64,000 nucleotides of DNA, taken from sequence record KM657822, one strand, 5' to 3'. The DNA comes from Escherichia phage vB_EcoM-VpaE1. The first letter of the stretch is position 1, and every line of letters begins with the position of its first letter. A model generated the notes under the pieces. That model had not been told where the DNA came from and ran no database searches. It saw nothing but the letters and a program-made list of their open reading frames with translations. Shown here in pieces: positions 13,281 through 32,366 of this stretch. The position numbers and the translations under genes are program-made.

Positions 13281-13529
13281 ATGGCAACTATCCGCGCTAC
13301 TGTAAACGCTTATGGCTGTTATACTCTGGACGTTAAATTTGATATTGGTGGGACTGATGAATGTTTTTCCTTAGTGAAGACAGTTATCAAGCAAGTAATC
13401 CCAGATTATAACCCTACTGATGACTTCTGGAAAGATGCCGTAAAAGAGGCCATAAACGATGAGCATCACTATCATTACTGGGGTGATTTGATTGTCTCCC
13501 TGTACTACAATAAACAAGGTTACAACTAA
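13281..13529 (+). CDS. hypothetical early protein
   Basis: ORF preceded by conserved cassette; last gene of the plus-strand block. Confidence 0.55.
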   Translation: MATIRATVNAYGCYTLDVKFDIGGTDECFSLVKTVIKQVIPDYNPTDDFWKDAVKEAINDEHHYHYWGDLIVSLYYNKQGYN

Positions 13530-13567: not shown

Positions 13568-13589
13568 AGCCCCTCATAGGGGCTTTTTT
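13568..13589 (+). terminator. intrinsic terminator ending plus-strand early block
   Basis: Hairpin gcccctcataggggc followed by T6; preceded by a second hairpin ggggctatttagcccc. Confidence 0.7.
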
Positions 13590-15245
13590 ACGTCTATGTA
13601 ATAGCCTCTATACAACCCCTTTCCTTTCCTTTCCAGAATCTTACTAGACCTTAAAAGCAATAACTCTATAGTCTACTCTATAACCTCTTATCAAATCAAC
13701 TTAAATATAAGCCCATAACCCGAAAGGGAAGGGCAACCATTTAAACGCTCTATAAAGCCCTATAACAGCCTTATCAACCTAACTTAATGGGTTGCATTAA
13801 CTCACCCTTAAAAGCCCTTCCTAGAGCTTCTCAGAGCCTTAAAAGAATCTTATAAGGGTGTAAGCTTTACCATCTCGTTAGTTCCTTGTGAATAACTAAA
13901 AAGGGCTTGTTAGTGTCTTAAAAGTATGTTATAGGGGCTATAAAGTTACTTTGAAGTTGCTTAAAAGTTACGTAAAAGGGGCTATAAAGTTACGTAAATG
14001 CTAGCCCCCTTAACATTTTCTTAACAATTTCTTAACAATCCCTACATAGTTATGCTTTTAAGACACTTGTTAGCAACTTGTTAGCCCCTTGTTAAATCTC
14101 TGTTAAGACCACGTAAAAGCCTTGTAAGAGTCTTTGACATAGCCTTAAAAGCTCCTGTAAAGCTCTATAAAGAGCTATCTGTACAGTTGGGGTGTAACTA
14201 CTAGGAAGAGGCTTAAAAGAGCTTATAAAGAGCTATAGAGAGCTTTTAAGAGGTATGTTTAAGGAATCACTAGGGATTGGTAACAATACCAATTAAGAAA
14301 GGAAGGGAACGATAAGAAAGAGAAGTTGTGTTTGAACCAACCACTGTGACCATGTTAACAGCTTGTTAAAAAGATTAAACACTTGTTAGAAACTTGTTAA
14401 TTATCTTAACAAAATAACTCTTAAAAATTAACTTGTTAGCTCTTGTTAGTCATTTGTTAAGCCTCTGTAAAGACTATTCAGCACTTGTTAGAAAACTGTT
14501 ACAGTCTTGTTAGTTCTGTTAAGAAACTGTTAAGACCTTTGAAGAGTTGTTAAGAGCTTGAGAGAGTTGTTAAGAAATTGTTAAGGATATTTTAAAATTT
14601 TGCAAAGTACTTGTAAGGGAGCTGTTAAGGGCTACCAAGCAGATATACATCATGAGGTAGATTCTACCGAATCAACTCTACAGATATTTTTCAGTTCCTT
14701 CAAAGACCCTAAAAAATGACTTGATAGTCCTATTTTATAAAAATTTTAAAATTCTGAATAATTACCTATACAGCCTTTTAAAAATACAGGTAATAACAGG
14801 CTTATAAGATACCTTGTTAGTACCGTGTTAGACCTTGTGAGATAAGGTCTGTAAAGATATTCCTGTTAAGTTTGTTAAAACAGTCTATATAGAGGCTTAG
14901 TAATACCTAGTGAACACCTATAGAGAGTGTCATAGCTAACATAATGGGTTACTGTTAAGTAACACAGATAACCTAGAGATTAAGAGGTGTATAGGAGCTT
15001 CTAAGAAGGTGTAGAGAGATGGTTAAGGTGATTGTATAGGCTGTTAAGAAGGCTTGTTAGAGGGCTAGTTAGAAGGTTTATACAGAGGGCTATTAAGACC
15101 ACTAGATAGTTACTAAGATACTATATAGTACTATATAACTATATAGAGAGTAAGATTAAGAAGGTTGTTAAGAAGGGTAGATATTTTGTTCACATATGAT
15201 GGTGACCCAGAGGTTGGGACAACCGATAAAATTTTATAAAAATTA
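13590..15245. repeat. ORF-free region with dense same-strand YTGTTAR motif array
   Basis: No ORF of 60 aa or more in the six-frame track; about 28 copies of [CT]TGTTA[AG] all on the plus strand, often 10-11 bp apart; TATAAAG motifs also present. Confidence 0.8.
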
Positions 15246-15279
15246 AAAAGCCCCCGATTAAGGAGGCTCTTAAGATATT

Positions 15280-15903
15280 TTAAATCAGTGTTTCTAGAAC
15301 TGTTTTTAATGATGACTTGGTTGTCTGATAAAAATGAGTGAATCCATTGTTTTTATCGAATACCTGCATCATGACATCATCTCCCTTGATTGGGTACACT
15401 CGGATACCATAGTGAAACCCATTAAAGATAGCAGAACCATTACAGAATACACTAAAATCATCCACTGAGATATACTCTTCATGTCCTGTGATTTTTATAC
15501 AGACACCTTTACTCGGTCTCTTAGGATTGATGTCTTCCATCACAGACATACTCTGTCCACCAAGAGAAACCATAGTGACCACTTTACGGTTCTTCTGTTT
15601 AAAGTACATCTTAACTTTCTGCAAAGTATCTTCATAGAACGGATAAGACTTCTCTACAAAGATTCCTTCAAGTGGCTCTTTACCATTTTTAACTTCTCTG
15701 TAACCCCGTACTGCAAAGACAATCTGTTTTAATCTGTCAAGACTTTCTTCAGAGAGTGCTTCTTGAACATCACTCCAGTCAAGTACTAGGTAGTTACCTT
15801 CAACATCTTTTAAGTTATCTTTTTCCATAGCTATCACACCACTATCGTAAAACTTGGTAAGCTGGAACTGCGAATTTATTACTATTGTTCTTGATGAGGT
15901 CAT
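15280..15903 (-). CDS. hypothetical protein
   Basis: ORF; start may be the internal Met near 15828 to avoid overlap. Confidence 0.45.
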   Translation of the reverse strand: MTSSRTIVINSQFQLTKFYDSGVIAMEKDNLKDVEGNYLVLDWSDVQEALSEESLDRLKQIVFAVRGYREVKNGKEPLEGIFVEKSYPFYEDTLQKVKMYFKQKNRKVVTMVSLGGQSMSVMEDINPKRPSKGVCIKITGHEEYISVDDFSVFCNGSAIFNGFHYGIRVYPIKGDDVMMQVFDKNNGFTHFYQTTKSSLKTVLETLI

Positions 15904-27894: not shown

Positions 27895-27970
27895 GGGGTC
27901 ATAGTTTATATGGTTAAAATTCGAGTTTTGCAAACTTGGGAACTGAGTTCAATTCTCAGTGACTCCACCA
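27895..27970 (+). tRNA. tRNA-Ala (TGC)
   Basis: Anticodon stem cgagt/acttg, loop ttTGCaa; CCA. Confidence 0.7.
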
Positions 27971-27976
27971 ATTAGT

Positions 27977-28051
27977 GCATCCATAGTTTAAACGGGAAAA
28001 TTACAGTCTTCCAAACTGAGGTTGAGGGTTCGATTCCCTCTGGATGCTCCA
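27977..28051 (+). tRNA. tRNA-Gly (TCC)
   Basis: Anticodon loop ctTCCaa; T-loop GGTTCGATTCC; CCA. Confidence 0.65.
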
Positions 28052-28057
28052 AATAAT

Positions 28058-28134
28058 GCTGCTTTCGTATAATTGGCTATTACACATCCCTTGTAAGGAT
28101 GGAAATGCAGGTTCGAGTCCTGTGAGCAGCACCA
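28058..28134 (+). tRNA. tRNA-Thr (TGT)
   Basis: Anticodon stem catcc/ggatg, loop ctTGTaa; CCA. Confidence 0.7.
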
Positions 28135-28229
28135 ATTCAGAGGTCAAGTGAAAGACCGCTGGTGTCAACTGAAGACCGTAACAAATTCCACGGAGTTGAG
28201 TTAGCGGCACAACTTCAGACCTCTTTCAT

Positions 28230-28304
28230 ACTCGCTTAGTTTATATGGTAAAACATCACCCTTACAAGATGAAGAAAAAGGTTCAAGTCCTTTAGTGAGT
28301 ACCA
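28230..28304 (+). tRNA. tRNA-Val (TAC)
   Basis: Anticodon loop ctTACaa; T-arm aaagg-ttcaagt-ccttt; CCA. Confidence 0.65.
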
Positions 28305-28305
28305 T

Positions 28306-28383
28306 GTTCCAGTATCCCAATTGGCAGAGGATGCAAGCTCAAACCTTGTACTAGTGACGGTTCGAATCCGTCTTGGAACACCA
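28306..28383 (+). tRNA. tRNA with CAA anticodon (Leu by anticodon; short variable arm)
   Basis: Anticodon stem gcaag/cttgt, loop ctCAAac; T-arm gacgg-ttcgaat-ccgtc; CCA. Confidence 0.6.
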
Positions 28384-28402
28384 ATTTTGAGAGGCTATTT
28401 AG

Positions 28403-28960
28403 ATGAGATATTTGAAGTATGCTTCATGGATTTTCCTAGCTTTACTAGAACCATTTGCAGCAACCCTAGCAGTCATCTTAGCACCTTTCGTAGTTCCATT
28501 CTACAGTGAGAAGAAAGGACATCTACCTTTTGGATTCAGATGGATGGAGACCTATGACAACCCAATTGATGGTGATGAAGGCCACGTTAAAAGATGGGCT
28601 AAGATTAGAAAGATTGGTAAGCTGGGTGTCTACATGCAGAGAGTTGGATGGCTCTGGAGAAACAAAGCTTATAACTTCTCTTACCATGTATTAGGAAGAG
28701 ATGTAAAAGATGTTACTAAGTGGAAAGGTAATATCAACGTAAGTTCTAACCCTGAAGATAATCAGACTGGTTATCTCCTAATGTGGAACAGTAATGCTTG
28801 GGGATTATTCGCTTTTATCCCATCAATTAAAGTCTTTGGTAAACAGTTTTACTGGAGAATTTATGTTGGGTGGAAACTTAAAAGTGTTGTCCCAGAAGAA
28901 AGAGCATTCTCAAGGGAAAGAGTTATGTTGGCATTCTTTATTCATCCACTGAGAAAGTAA
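28403..28960 (+). CDS. hypothetical membrane protein encoded inside tRNA cluster
   Basis: 185-aa ORF with N-terminal hydrophobic segment, Trp-rich; no tRNA overlap. Confidence 0.5.
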   Translation: MRYLKYASWIFLALLEPFAATLAVILAPFVVPFYSEKKGHLPFGFRWMETYDNPIDGDEGHVKRWAKIRKIGKLGVYMQRVGWLWRNKAYNFSYHVLGRDVKDVTKWKGNINVSSNPEDNQTGYLLMWNSNAWGLFAFIPSIKVFGKQFYWRIYVGWKLKSVVPEERAFSRERVMLAFFIHPLRK

Positions 28961-28968
28961 AGATTTAA

Positions 28969-29044
28969 AGGGGATTAGTTTACAAGGTTAAAACCTCGGT
29001 CTTTGAAATCGAAGAAGTTGGTTCAATTCCAACATCCCCCGCCA
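28969..29044 (+). tRNA. tRNA-Gln (TTG)
   Basis: Anticodon loop ctTTGaa; unpaired 1-72 (A/C); CCA. Confidence 0.65.
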
Positions 29045-29046
29045 AT

Positions 29047-29125
29047 GCTCCATTACTCCAATTGGCAGAGAGGCCAGACTTAAAATCTGTGTTATGTATC
29101 GGTTCGAATCCGATATGGAGTACCA
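29047..29125 (+). tRNA. tRNA with TAA anticodon (Leu by anticodon; short variable arm)
   Basis: Anticodon loop ctTAAaa; T-arm atcgg-ttcgaat-ccgat; CCA. Confidence 0.6.
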
Positions 29126-29130
29126 AATTT

Positions 29131-29206
29131 AGCGGTATAGCATAACTGGCAATGCAACAGTCTCTGAAGCTGTCCTATTAAGGTTCAAATCCTTATGCCG
29201 CTGCCA
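29131..29206 (+). tRNA. tRNA-Gln (CTG)
   Basis: Anticodon stem acagt/gctgt, loop ctCTGaa; CCA. Confidence 0.65.
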
Positions 29207-29237
29207 CTTCTAAGGGTTCTTACGAGAGTCCTTAAAT

Positions 29238-29313
29238 GTGGCCTTATCATAAATGGTAATGACCCATGCTGTGAACATGGTCTATACGGGTTCAAATCCC
29301 GTAGGTCACCCCA
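29238..29313 (+). tRNA. tRNA-His (GTG)
   Basis: Anticodon stem ccatg/catgg, loop ctGTGaa; CCA. Confidence 0.7.
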
Positions 29314-29318
29314 ATTTA

Positions 29319-29395
29319 TAGTCCAAGTAGCTTATATGGTTAAAGCGCGTGTCTGAAAAACATGAGAAGAGGGTTCAAATCCCACTGGACTACCA
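29319..29395 (+). tRNA. tRNA-Phe (GAA)
   Basis: Anticodon loop ctGAAaa; T-loop GGTTCAAATCC; acceptor register ambiguous by 1-2 nt. Confidence 0.6.
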
Positions 29396-29411
29396 ATTTC
29401 AAAGGTGCTTA

Positions 29412-30146
29412 ATGAAAGAGATGACAGAACAAGGTAAGGAGATTTTTAATCTCTTAAAAACCGGTAAAGGGTTTTCTAACCCACTTATTACTGGTGCAGC
29501 AGTTCTCGGTGGAACCGTAGCTGCCTCTACATCACTTGTAAGCTCTATTAGCTCTGTAACAGACCCTGCAATGAAGGAGAAACTTGTTGCTGCTGGACTT
29601 ACAACAGTCCTTCTAAACAGCTTTACAACAAGCCTTACAAGCACTACAGCAACTACTAAGACCCTAACAGACTACGGTCAAAAGTCTATTGATGAGTTTT
29701 CATCACGTATGCAGGTAGCAAAGGGATATTCCAATGTTATGGGTGCAGCAGGAGAACAGGTTGGTTGTACACCATTCAGTGGTATTATGGGTGTTGCTAC
29801 AGAATATGGTCAAAAAGCTATTGACACAATTAACAGTACACTAGATAGTGTTAATGGTGTGTTAAGTGACTTACAAGATGCTATTGATAAGGGTCTTGAT
29901 ACTGTTTCTGATTTAGCTAACCAAGCTGTTAGTAAGATTAATGAAGGTATCTCAAAGATTACAGCTTATGCAGATGAAGTTGTGCAGATGATTGAAGAAG
30001 AAGCTGCCCTTATTGCAGAGTACCTTAAAACGAATATCAATGGGTTCTTAGCAGGTATCTTACCAGACTGGTTTGACGATGCTTGTAAAACTGGTGTGAT
30101 TGACACTATTGCAACACCAGAAATGAAGAACGCATTACAGAAATAA
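29412..30146 (+). CDS. hypothetical protein (Gly/Ala-rich N-region, helical C-region)
   Basis: Start moved to ATG 29412 after aaaggtg RBS, downstream of tRNA-Phe. Confidence 0.5.
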   Translation: MKEMTEQGKEIFNLLKTGKGFSNPLITGAAVLGGTVAASTSLVSSISSVTDPAMKEKLVAAGLTTVLLNSFTTSLTSTTATTKTLTDYGQKSIDEFSSRMQVAKGYSNVMGAAGEQVGCTPFSGIMGVATEYGQKAIDTINSTLDSVNGVLSDLQDAIDKGLDTVSDLANQAVSKINEGISKITAYADEVVQMIEEEAALIAEYLKTNINGFLAGILPDWFDDACKTGVIDTIATPEMKNALQK

Positions 30147-30147
30147 T

Positions 30148-30240
30148 GGAAGATTAACCCTAAAAGGTAAGGGAGCAGTTTGCTAAACTGCTAGTAGCTG
30201 AGAAATCGGTGTACCAGTTCAAGTCTGGTATCTTCCTCCA
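30148..30240 (+). tRNA. tRNA-Ser (GCT)
   Basis: 93 nt with long variable arm; anticodon stem gcagt/actgc, loop ttGCTaa; CCA; begins 2 nt after upstream stop codon. Confidence 0.7.
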
Positions 30241-30244
30241 ATTT

Positions 30245-30320
30245 GAATCCGTGACAGAAATGGATATGTGCCTGTCTGCAAAACAGGTTTATAAGGGTTC
30301 AAGTCCCTTCGGATTCTCCA
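30245..30320 (+). tRNA. tRNA-Cys (GCA)
   Basis: Anticodon stem cctgt/acagg, loop ctGCAaa; T-arm aaggg-ttcaagt-ccctt; CCA. Confidence 0.7.
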
Positions 30321-30542: not shown

Positions 30543-30743
30543 ATGAGCGAGAACGTTTATAAAGAACTTTATGAAGCTAACAAGAAGTTAGAGTTTATGC
30601 AGAATACTATCATGGCAATTGCAGACAGATTATCTGTAGCAACAGGTATTGATATTAAAGAAGCATCTATGGATGCACTTCTTGATGCTGTTGATGCAAA
30701 GTTCGAAGTTAAGAAAGAAGAGACTGCTACAGACTCTGAATAA
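30543..30743 (+). CDS. hypothetical small protein upstream of terminase
   Basis: 66-aa ORF with RBS; position matches a small terminase subunit but no motif support. Confidence 0.4.
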   Translation: MSENVYKELYEANKKLEFMQNTIMAIADRLSVATGIDIKEASMDALLDAVDAKFEVKKEETATDSE

Positions 30744-30764
30744 TTCTATTTGCGGAGGCGCTTA

Positions 30765-32366
30765 ATGGACTTAAATGCTGTTAAGCAGAAGCGAGTGGAA
30801 GATGTTAGGAAAGTCCTAGCTGGAGAGTTGGGGCTTTCTGATGAAGTAAAAGAAATTATCAAATCATTCGGTAAAGACCCCTCTAAATTCCTTCCAACTC
30901 AAATTCTGACTTTATTAAGATACACACCAGACCAAGTTCGCCTCATCTTTAAATTGATGACTGATAAGAACTATGTAGCCCCTCAACCGGGTTCTCAAGA
31001 GGTCTTTTTAAATACTAATGCTGACTTGGTTCTCTATGGTGGTGCTGCTGGTGCTGGTAAGACTGCCGCATTGTTAATGGACTCTTTAAGATTTATTGAA
31101 GACCCTAACTATAATGCTGTATATTTCCGTCGAAATACAACACAATTACAAGGTGGTTTATGGCCTGCTGCAAAGAAACTATTTGGTAAGTTTGGTGGGA
31201 TTCCTCACGAGCAGAAAATGACTATCACATTCCCTTCTGGGGCAACTATCAAGTTTACCTACCTAGAACTTGAAAAGCACGCTGAAGGTCATCAGGGTAT
31301 TGAATACTCAGCTATTTACTTTGACGAAGGTACACACTTCTCTGCTTCACAGATTTCATACCTACAAACCCGTCTACGTTCTGGTGCTGAAGGTGATTCA
31401 TACATGAAGATTTCCATGAACCCAGACAGAGACCACTTTATTTACGATTGGGTAGAGCCATTCTTAGATGAAGAAGGCTATCCAGACCCTGAAAAATGTG
31501 GTCGTATTCGTTGGTATGTAATGAACGATGGTGTGATGGTTTCTGATTGGGAGAGAGACAAGATTCTTGAAATGTTCCCTCTTGAGATTCCTCAAACATA
31601 CACCTTTATCTCTGGTACGATTGATGATAACCCAATCCTTGACTTCTTAGAACCTAAGTACCGTGGTAAGTTGGAAAACAACACCCCTGTAAACGTTGCA
31701 AGACTTCGTTTCGGTAACTGGAAGGCTCGTGCAGAAGGTTCAAACTACTGGCAAAGACAATGGTGTGAGATTGTTGATTCACTCCCAGAAGATGTATTTG
31801 ATGTTAGAGCATGGGACTTAGCAGCAACTTTACCATCTGAGATTAACCCTAATCCAGACTGGACAGCAGGTGTTAAGATGGGTAAATCTAAAAAAGACGG
31901 TTGCTATTATATCATTGATGTAGTAAGATTTAGAGATAGACCCTCTGGAGTCGAAACACAAATTAATTTGACTGCTGAAAGTGACGGTAAGCGAACTGGT
32001 ATTTTTATCCCTCAAGACCCAGGCGCTGCTGGTAAATCCTACGCAACATCCCTCATCAGGAAACTTGCCGAGAAAGGCTATCGTGCAAGAGCTAAACCAA
32101 CAAATAAAGATAAAGTTACCCGCTTTGCGGGATTTTCTGCTGCTTCTGAAGCTGGACTTGTAAAAGTCTTGAGAGGTAGTTGGAATGAAGCTTACTTTCA
32201 AGAGCTTGAAGGCTTTTGTGGCGATGGTAAAACTAAAGATGACCAAGTGGATGCTACCAGTGATGCTTTCAACAGTCTTAACGAAGTTAAATTATTCAAG
32301 CCACCATCAATGGGTGCTCACACAGATTTAGTGAGGGGAAACCCATATGAGGGGCTTAGACGTTGA
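30765..32366 (+). CDS. terminase large subunit
   Basis: Walker A LYGGAAGAGKTAAL; size and position ahead of portal; start set at ATG 30765 after ggagg RBS. Confidence 0.8.
   Translation: MDLNAVKQKRVEDVRKVLAGELGLSDEVKEIIKSFGKDPSKFLPTQILTLLRYTPDQVRLIFKLMTDKNYVAPQPGSQEVFLNTNADLVLYGGAAGAGKTAALLMDSLRFIEDPNYNAVYFRRNTTQLQGGLWPAAKKLFGKFGGIPHEQKMTITFPSGATIKFTYLELEKHAEGHQGIEYSAIYFDEGTHFSASQISYLQTRLRSGAEGDSYMKISMNPDRDHFIYDWVEPFLDEEGYPDPEKCGRIRWYVMNDGVMVSDWERDKILEMFPLEIPQTYTFISGTIDDNPILDFLEPKYRGKLENNTPVNVARLRFGNWKARAEGSNYWQRQWCEIVDSLPEDVFDVRAWDLAATLPSEINPNPDWTAGVKMGKSKKDGCYYIIDVVRFRDRPSGVETQINLTAESDGKRTGIFIPQDPGAAGKSYATSLIRKLAEKGYRARAKPTNKDKVTRFAGFSAASEAGLVKVLRGSWNEAYFQELEGFCGDGKTKDDQVDATSDAFNSLNEVKLFKPPSMGAHTDLVRGNPYEGLRR

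Follow-up and report, generated by a model that had tools for sequence, protein, structure and literature searches.

In Escherichia phage vB_EcoM-VpaE1 (sequence record KM657822), of which we analysed a 64,000-nucleotide stretch (the window), the interval at positions 13590-15245 is probably a cis-acting concatemer-junction and packaging region, in which phased arrays of short motifs would bind an oligomeric terminase or accessory protein, and a pair of inverted elements would direct two cuts. Within it we predict a 633-bp direct terminal repeat (DTR; window 14004-14636), present as a single copy in the collapsed window sequence and expected, by homology with relatives, at both ends of virion DNA. 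The terminal repeat and its inverted boundary elements are the key to the region, and both were absent from the original prediction, which described a protein-binding array and offered a replication origin, a packaging recognition site, or a partition-like structure as its role. The packaging or terminus option agrees with the evidence, in that the densest part of the array coincides with the DTR bounded by the genome ends of relatives, and a partition role has no support in a lytic phage.

The interval coincides with the genome ends of related phages

With a 1.75-kb query spanning the region, 255 phage records are matched (identity roughly 77-92%), almost all of them from Felixounavirus and related Ounavirinae with Escherichia, Salmonella, Shigella, and Citrobacter as hosts, and by this similarity we assign the window to a Felixounavirus genome, that of a Felix O1-like myovirus. 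Most of the ~255 Ounavirinae records are opened at arbitrary positions and hold one repeat copy each; several start exactly at query position 475. The Pr103Blw record annotates a 581-bp 'short direct terminal repeat' at both of its ends, with the DTR derived from PhageTerm according to the accompanying paper. In alignment, its left boundary (ATGCTA followed by GCCCCCTTAACA) falls between window positions 14003 and 14004, and its right boundary (CTGTTAAGGGCTACC followed by AAGCAGATATACA) between 14636 and 14637. The repeats of SPJ41 (613 bp), NBEco004, and NBEco005 are bounded at exactly the equivalents of 14004 and 14636, and that of the Hafnia phage SPARTY, a Kolesnikvirus with ~69% identity in the region, is 439 bp long and bounded at the homologous bases (GGTTA/GCCAC and GACCACT/AAGCAGATATACA, with the slash marking the boundary). 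The cut sites TA/GCCCCC and GGGCTACC/AAGCAG are thereby conserved as far as Kolesnikvirus, their cores being kept in 10 genomes as well as in that genus, and the 40 nt on either side of both boundaries are identical or nearly so in SPJ41 and Pr103Blw.

For UAB_Phi87, a 608-bp DTR has been published, with ends determined by Bal31 digestion and run-off sequencing, and its TerL, which is nearly identical to that encoded in the window, falls in the Felix O1-like DTR cluster (PMC4837284). We compared this phage on its internal homologous boundaries, which in the database record (JN225449 14500-16600) are 614 bp apart versus the published 608, a gap of 6 bp; the record is not opened at the physical ends, and its length, 87,603, differs from the published 87,669 less 608. 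The discrepancy may mean that the cut sites lie a few bases apart, or that the sequence versions differ.

The boundaries are also unique and symmetrical. The 64 kb contain just two copies of TAGCCC(CC)TTAACA, one per DTR boundary and in inverted orientation, and each DTR end is the inverted repeat of the other: 14008-14027 and 14567-14586 have 95% complementarity over 20 nt, and 14007-14038 and 14600-14631 have 72%. The ends of the Kolesnikvirus DTR are likewise inverted (46-nt arms with 76% complementarity), with a partly different sequence. Two other candidate signals at the boundaries were set aside. A hairpin, GGGGCTA-N17-TAGCCCC, spans the left cut site, and we did not build on it, its 5′ arm being unconserved in Mooglevirus; a TGCTW/G cut motif common to both boundaries is present in this phage but is unconserved at the Mooglevirus left boundary, and we preferred the invariant TAGCC core.

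The gap between the flanking gene blocks is non-coding, in keeping with the original description of an interval free of open reading frames (ORFs) between convergently terminated blocks: the longest ORFs within 13590-15245 are 39 aa and 33 aa, and intrinsic terminators lie at 13568-13584 (plus strand) and 15271-15246 (minus strand). No Rfam family was found in the region, the sole match being a sub-threshold Phe_leader over the terminator at 15241-15301 (26 bits versus a gathering score of 55), and sigma-70-like promoter sites are at chance level (10 found versus 8.6 expected); with these results and no ORF longer than 39 aa, we dropped a coding or RNA reading. Several records, including those of pEC-M719 and UAB_Phi87, have short spurious ORFs annotated inside this non-coding region. 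In Felix O1 the counterpart separates genes 23 and 24, which converge on it (AF320576 12306-13928). The Felix O1 genome paper recognizes four transcription units, two of which converge at this gap, leaves the gap itself undiscussed, and states, from gel sizing only, that the phage 'possesses short terminal repeats.'

The features of the region are listed here by window coordinates.

13568-13584, plus strand: intrinsic terminator closing the plus-strand gene block (Felix O1 genes up to 23), conserved in all aligned relatives.
13590-14003, plus strand: unique non-coding flank by the predicted right physical genome end, with phased CTNWAAAG units (CTTAAAAG, CTATAAAG) and base autocorrelation of 0.39 at lag 11 and 0.38 at lag 22.
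13933-13998: 22-bp tandem repeat in three copies, in the left-hand flank.
14002-14015, plus strand: left boundary element TAGCCCCCTTAACA, with the predicted left end between A14003 and G14004; invariant in 10 aligned genomes, and the Pr103Blw, SPJ41, and SPARTY records start or end exactly there.
14004-14636, no strand: 633-bp DTR, predicted by homology.
14010-14038, minus strand: TTAACA (TGTTAA in the opposite orientation) three times, one unit every 11 bp, directly within the left boundary; as the left arm of the DTR terminal inverted repeat, this cluster pairs with 14567-14631 (20 nt at 95% and 29 nt at 90% complementarity).
14067-14106, plus strand: four YTGTTAR units exactly 11 bp apart, with conserved cores and variable spacers.
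14144-14256, plus strand: central cluster of 10-11-bp units of the CTTWWAAG, CTATAAAG, and CTATAGAG type.
14355-14628, plus strand: main phased array, made of 14 exact plus-strand YTGTTAR units and degenerate CTNNNNAG units, nearly continuous to the right boundary and still detectable by blastn in Erwinia and Hafnia phages.
14623-14636, minus strand: right boundary element GGTAGCCCTTAACA, with the predicted right end after C14636; SPARTY ends at the homologous base.
14637-15245, plus strand: unique non-coding flank by the predicted left physical end, also holding seven scattered YTGTTAR units, together with CTATAKAG and TAAGARG units.
14637-14649: invariant AAGCAGATATACA in this flank.
~14710-14770: block with an A+T content of at least 85%, within which CTATTTTATAAAAATTT is invariant.
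15246-15271, minus strand: intrinsic terminator at the end of the minus-strand gene block (Felix O1 genes 40-24), matched in KhF2 by an annotated terminator in the homologous position.

The motif arrays are oriented and helically phased

YTGTTAR matches 30 times in the region, 26 times on the plus strand and four times on the minus strand (binomial P = 6e-5 for the strand bias), with 22 copies inside the DTR and 8 outside. Elsewhere in the window there are 71 matches in 62.3 kb (1.1 per kb), a density from which 1.9 would be expected in the region (Poisson P ~1e-25), and 2000 dinucleotide shuffles of the region gave means of 1.4 (plus) and 1.0 (minus) with a maximum of 7. The abundance originally reported, about 28 copies, is thus borne out, but the claim that all share one orientation is not: reverse copies lie at 14021, 14032, 14355, and 14406, and the first two, which are part of the inverted TTAACA cluster at the left repeat boundary, are probably meaningful. 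Longer forms of the motif are similarly concentrated, with CTTGTTAG present in 10 plus-strand copies in the region versus one plus-strand and five minus-strand copies in the remaining 62 kb, and ACTTGTTA in six copies versus none (plus) and one (minus) elsewhere.

Successive YTGTTAR units are separated by 11 bp seven times, and by 9, 10, 20, 22, and 31 bp in other cases. The pair-distance cosine score of these motifs is highest (0.67) at 10.25 bp, the 14 units of the right-hand array have a phase coherence of R = 0.75 at 10.4 bp, and the motif-free autocorrelation of bases over the whole region, scored relative to 70 background windows of the same genome, peaks at lags 10-11 (z 5.7-7.2), 20-22 (z 4.3-5.9), and 31-32 (z 3.7-6.6), with a signal in all three sub-parts of the region. 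By these three measures the sites are helically phased at 10.25-10.7 bp. Autocorrelation of motif positions had been put forward as a check on the original prediction, whose 10-11-bp spacing stands; the example coordinates given there are correct within 1 bp, the actual positions being 14067, 14078, 14089, 14100, 14485, 14507, 14516, and 14527, and the site at 14496 is a variant, CTGTTAC.

Two main motif 'dialects' can be distinguished, the directional TGTTA(A/G) and the CTNWAAAG/CTTWWAAG type. The CTNWAAAG family has 15 plus-strand and two minus-strand copies, and TATAAAG, which had been picked out earlier as an accompanying motif, proves to be a member of it, with five copies on the plus strand and none on the minus strand. 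More broadly, the region is a degenerate tandem array of CTNNNNAG octamers in a register of ~10.6 bp, with 67 units in 1.66 kb at about four times the density of the remaining window.

A small cluster of CTTWWAAG-type units with ~10-bp spacing is also present at 23320-23440, the divergent promoter region between a minus-strand and a plus-strand gene block; the units there and at 23830-23860 (CTTAAAAG, CTTTTAAG, CTTATAAG, and CTCTAAAG) adjoin TTGACA promoter-like hexamers. From their placement, transcription control regions seem to make use of at least the second family, which may be the site of a regulator acting at several loci. These outlying units, and the position of the region between two terminators, would be in line with arrays that bind a transcriptional regulator, either insulating or terminating the convergent units or silencing the region, with the overlap with the DTR being incidental. 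We consider this very unlikely, because the TGTTA family is essentially confined to the region, as the CTTGTTAG counts illustrate, strong intrinsic terminators already end both flanking blocks, and the sigma-70-like sites do not exceed chance.

Motif cores are conserved across genera

Ten genomes from three genera (Felixounavirus, Mooglevirus, and Suspvirus) have a 1.6-1.7-kb ORF-free gap in which the same arrays are placed alike, and each genome has its best period at 10.25-10.5 bp. In nine relatives from these genera, the TGTTA cores of the DTR are 94% identical to the window, versus 71% for non-motif DTR positions and 73% for short spacers, and the alignment shows 3-4-nt spacers varying while the cores are kept. 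Between genera, the non-coding DNA is 82-85% identical, versus 66-72% for the two flanking genes at the nucleotide level; the flanking 207-aa protein has 49-55% amino acid identity. The original prediction was to be given up if the region proved poorly conserved among close relatives, and we find the opposite, a region more conserved than its neighbouring genes. Purifying selection acts on the motif cores. Indels are concentrated at sizes of 10-11 and 22-23 bp, and therefore whole units have been gained or lost with the phase preserved.

The more distant Kolesnikvirus genomes (Erwinia phage Pistou 1129-2534, and SPARTY) keep the TGTTAAG array inside the 439-bp DTR, and in their left flank CTNWAAAG is replaced by at least nine phased copies of (C/T)TTCTAA(G/A). 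Such a motif switch is the behaviour expected of a binding site that co-evolves with its protein, and it offers a possible handle on the cognate protein by covariation.

Indels in 11- and 22-bp units, and the many tandem-repeat rows of period 10-12, could also arise in a functionless satellite, a 10-11-bp tandem repeat that has expanded by slippage in a dispensable gap and is drifting. We regard this as extremely improbable and already close to refuted, given conservation above that of the flanking genes across genera, conserved cores with variable spacers, an architecture kept in Kolesnikvirus at ~69% identity, and the strong orientation bias.

Three short hairpin-bearing inserts, at 14273-14297, 14652-14675, and 14941-14972 (GGGATTGGTAACAATACCAATTAAG, ATGAGGTAGATTCTACCGAATCAA, and ATAATGGGTTACTGTTAAGTAACACAGATAAC), each occur once in the window and are present in only some relatives, with a distribution that cuts across genera. 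The GGGATTGGTAACAATACCAATTAAG insert is inverted at another position (~13731) in pEC-M719, and relatives have a related GAGATAGAnTCTATCGAATCC insert at other spots. These inserts may be tiny mobile palindromic elements.

Replication signals in the region

Many same-orientation repeats in helical phase, strong conservation, and, just outside the DTR, an AT-rich stretch (at least 85% A+T) containing the invariant core CTATTTTATAAAAATTT are features that a replication origin might also have. The region would then carry iteron-like phased sites on which a phage initiator or architectural protein assembles a replication-activating nucleoprotein complex, in the style of the lambda ori iterons or of the phi29 p6 complex that covers genome ends, with the conserved AT-rich block at ~14710-14770 as the unwinding element and the DTR overlapping the origin. 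Cumulative GC skew has a local maximum at the region, as an origin might produce, but the maximum coincides with the switch from plus-strand to minus-strand genes and is explained by transcription polarity. Scans of the region for DnaA, IHF, and GATC sites gave nothing meaningful, with only one relaxed DnaA box (0.2-0.4 expected) and no IHF consensus sites. There is no adjacent replication gene, and the PHROG families of the neighbouring ORFs have no assigned function; in the relative Bas63, the primase/helicase and polymerase lie beyond the virion-protein module, and TerL is itself ~15 kb off, at window position 30750. The unit is 7-8 bp versus the 17-22 bp typical of iterons, and an origin does not predict the base-exact match of the array edges to the cut sites. 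An origin is therefore, in our judgement, unlikely.

GATC is absent from both strands of the whole 64-kb window, versus ~183 sites expected from dinucleotide-preserving shuffles. This avoidance points to selection against Dam- or MboI/Sau3AI-type recognition.

Comparison with terminal and packaging regions of other phages

The T7 and T3 junctions are cis-acting and are needed for concatemer processing and packaging. The T7 junction resembles the region described here in being non-coding, with a short exact direct terminal repeat, and in having a single-orientation 7-mer inside the repeat and in both flanks (CCTAAAG at 13:0 in T7 and YTGTTAR at 26:4 here). Scanning the T7 sequence, we found 13 copies of CCTAAAG on one strand, with three inside the 160-bp repeat and 10 in the flanks, whose short-repeat arrays were reportedly named SRL and SRR by Dunn and Studier in 1983; the CTNWAAAG motif resembles this heptamer. 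In contrast to the helical 10-11 bp here, the T7 left array has a period of 13 bp (autocorrelation 0.57 at lag 13). The two regions have no sequence homology and belong to different groups, Autographiviridae for T7 and an Ounavirinae myovirus here, and the repeat here is four times longer, itself holds most of the motifs, and has mutually inverted ends, with genes converging from both sides. A blastn search with the region returned no T7-like match, all matches being to Ounavirinae or related enterobacterial phages, bar one uninspected record labelled Staphylococcus. The relation to the T7 junction is one of analogy, not of membership.

T5-like phages have a 1662-bp ORF-free region with dense direct and inverted repeats, lying across the inner boundary of the terminal repeat; across the group its conservation, in order as well as in sequence, exceeds that of the adjacent ORFs, and it has been linked to the injection stop signal (bioRxiv 10.1101/866236). 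This T5 region (Repeat Region 3) and the one in the window are alike as ORF-free stretches of ~1.66 kb lying over a terminal-repeat boundary, with direct and inverted repeats and conservation above that of adjacent ORFs. T5 has eight DnaA boxes, long inverted repeats, two-step injection, and a 10-kb terminal repeat, whereas here we find a single relaxed DnaA box, 7-8-bp units in helical phase, and a 0.6-kb repeat. The close similarity in size, position, and conservation pattern raises the idea that arrays on the first-entering end bind a host or phage protein that pauses or regulates ejection as in T5, protects the ends from exonucleases, or promotes recombination of ends into concatemers. Such a role in DNA entry or end management seems to us quite unlikely: an ordered series of DnaA boxes of the T5 type is absent, two-step injection for Felix O1 is not reported in the literature covered, and the same repeat would lie at both ends, with the genes there transcribed towards the ends, such that there would be no early genes needing staged entry.

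The pacL-pacC-pacR sites of SPP1 and SF6 and the R sites of lambda cosB similarly have short repeated boxes in helical phase by a terminase cleavage site, and in the proposed mode of binding a ring of DNA-binding domains has the DNA bent or wrapped around it (PMC4737164). Those systems have 2-4 boxes over ~100-200 bp, use headful or cos packaging, and have an identified small terminase (TerS), whereas the region here packs more than 20 units into 0.6 kb, has two cut sites separated by 633 bp, and comes with no recognizable TerS. Near both ends of the phi29 genome, the architectural protein p6 wraps long stretches of DNA by periodic binding; phi29 has protein-primed ends, and p6 has a period of 24 bp and recognizes bendability and not a conserved motif, unlike the 10-11-bp period and conserved motif found here.

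Search for the binding protein

TerL (538 aa) is encoded at 30750-32366, and in the Felix O1-like genome papers covered the large terminase is the only one stated to be identifiable. Directly upstream of TerL is a 66-aa ORF (30543-30743) of PHROG 4397, which has no assigned function, and an ORF of the same family has the same position in Bas63; it is a positional candidate for the small terminase, without fold or family support. Neither it nor an 82-aa flanking ORF (13281-13529) has a Pfam family, and the latter too belongs to a PHROG family with no assigned function. AlphaFold models predict a helical hairpin for the 66-aa ORF (pLDDT 83) and a beta-beta-alpha-alpha-beta-beta fold for the 82-aa ORF (pLDDT 72), and Foldseek searches of the PDB with the two models gave no match with E below 0.1. 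The terminase and structural module is preceded by 25 tRNA genes, all on the plus strand (25483-30320), and a 265-aa DUF7217 ORF (29349-30146) lies within this tRNA cluster.

A model for end formation

If the region acts in packaging, concatemers would carry the repeat once between genomes, and the repeat would be duplicated at packaging, such that each virion DNA starts at 14004 and ends at 14636. A putative oligomeric packaging protein, either small-terminase-like or an accessory factor, would bind the TGTTA(A/G) units; with one unit per helical turn, and thus on a single face of the DNA, tens of turns could be wrapped or coated cooperatively, and the DNA so wrapped or coated would be marked as the start and end point of packaging. 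The inverted TAGCCC(CC)TTAACA elements would position a nuclease symmetrically, to cut or nick at both boundaries, probably on opposite strands, with strand-displacement synthesis following the nicking as proposed for T7. In the model established for T7 and T3, opposite strands are nicked at two staggered positions and strand-displacement synthesis ensues, and symmetric placement of the nuclease by inverted elements is a prediction of that model. The flanking arrays, with CTNWAAAG on one side and mixed units on the other, would be likely auxiliary binding sites. In ring-shaped small terminases, neighbouring helix-turn-helix (HTH) motifs are spaced by about one B-DNA turn, a geometry compatible with wrapping and with regularly spaced footprints (PMC4737164).

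Several points weigh against this reading. The physical ends assigned to this phage derive from homology to its relatives. Pfam and PHROG searches of the ORF upstream of TerL, the 265-aa ORF, and six flanking ORFs returned families of unknown function only, and no small terminase or other DNA-binding protein; we treat this as a dead end and not as evidence of absence. The periodic units reach ~400-600 bp past the repeat on both sides, exceeding the needs of known pac sites, and the conserved AT-rich block beside the arrays would also fit an origin. To our knowledge, no firm function has ever been assigned to the analogous T7 arrays. Wrapping of DNA around small terminases is itself contested, and the HK97 TerS threads DNA through its channel (PMC11331095).

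We also entertain, as a tentative and rather doubtful extension, that the whole 1.7 kb is, instead of a plain pac site with spacer DNA, a single phased nucleoprotein organizer, built on the ~67 CTNNNNAG units in their ~10.6-bp register, which replaces the missing small terminase. Directional TGTTA dialects would serve inside the DTR and palindromic CTTWWAAG dialects outside it, and the DNA would be wrapped by one or more phage proteins polymerizing on one of its faces. Such an organizer would couple end recognition to symmetric double nicking at the boundary elements, and perhaps to replication or concatemer formation. If true, it would mean TerS-independent genome recognition in a large group of therapeutic myoviruses.

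Significance

The packaging and concatemer-junction reading, which we favour, concerns a group whose DTR is already published. In the full-text literature that we searched, phased conserved arrays, unique inverted boundary elements, and conservation of the cut sites across genera are not described, with subscription papers and theses (such as Marti 2013 on FO1a) outside the search. We consider the region a real and well-delimited cis-element of a known kind, previously undissected in this lineage.

Felix O1-like phages (Ounavirinae) are widely used in Salmonella and Escherichia coli diagnostics and in biocontrol. Base-level cut sites, phased units, and inverted boundary elements together make a concrete and testable packaging cis-element, which could be used for orienting and closing assemblies, for packaging-competent vectors or transduction assays, and for fishing for the DNA-binding protein. 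With T7 and T5, this would be the third independent lineage in which terminal repeats are embedded in oriented arrays of short repeats, and the recurrence in three lineages suggests that such arrays have a general role in phages with direct terminal repeats.

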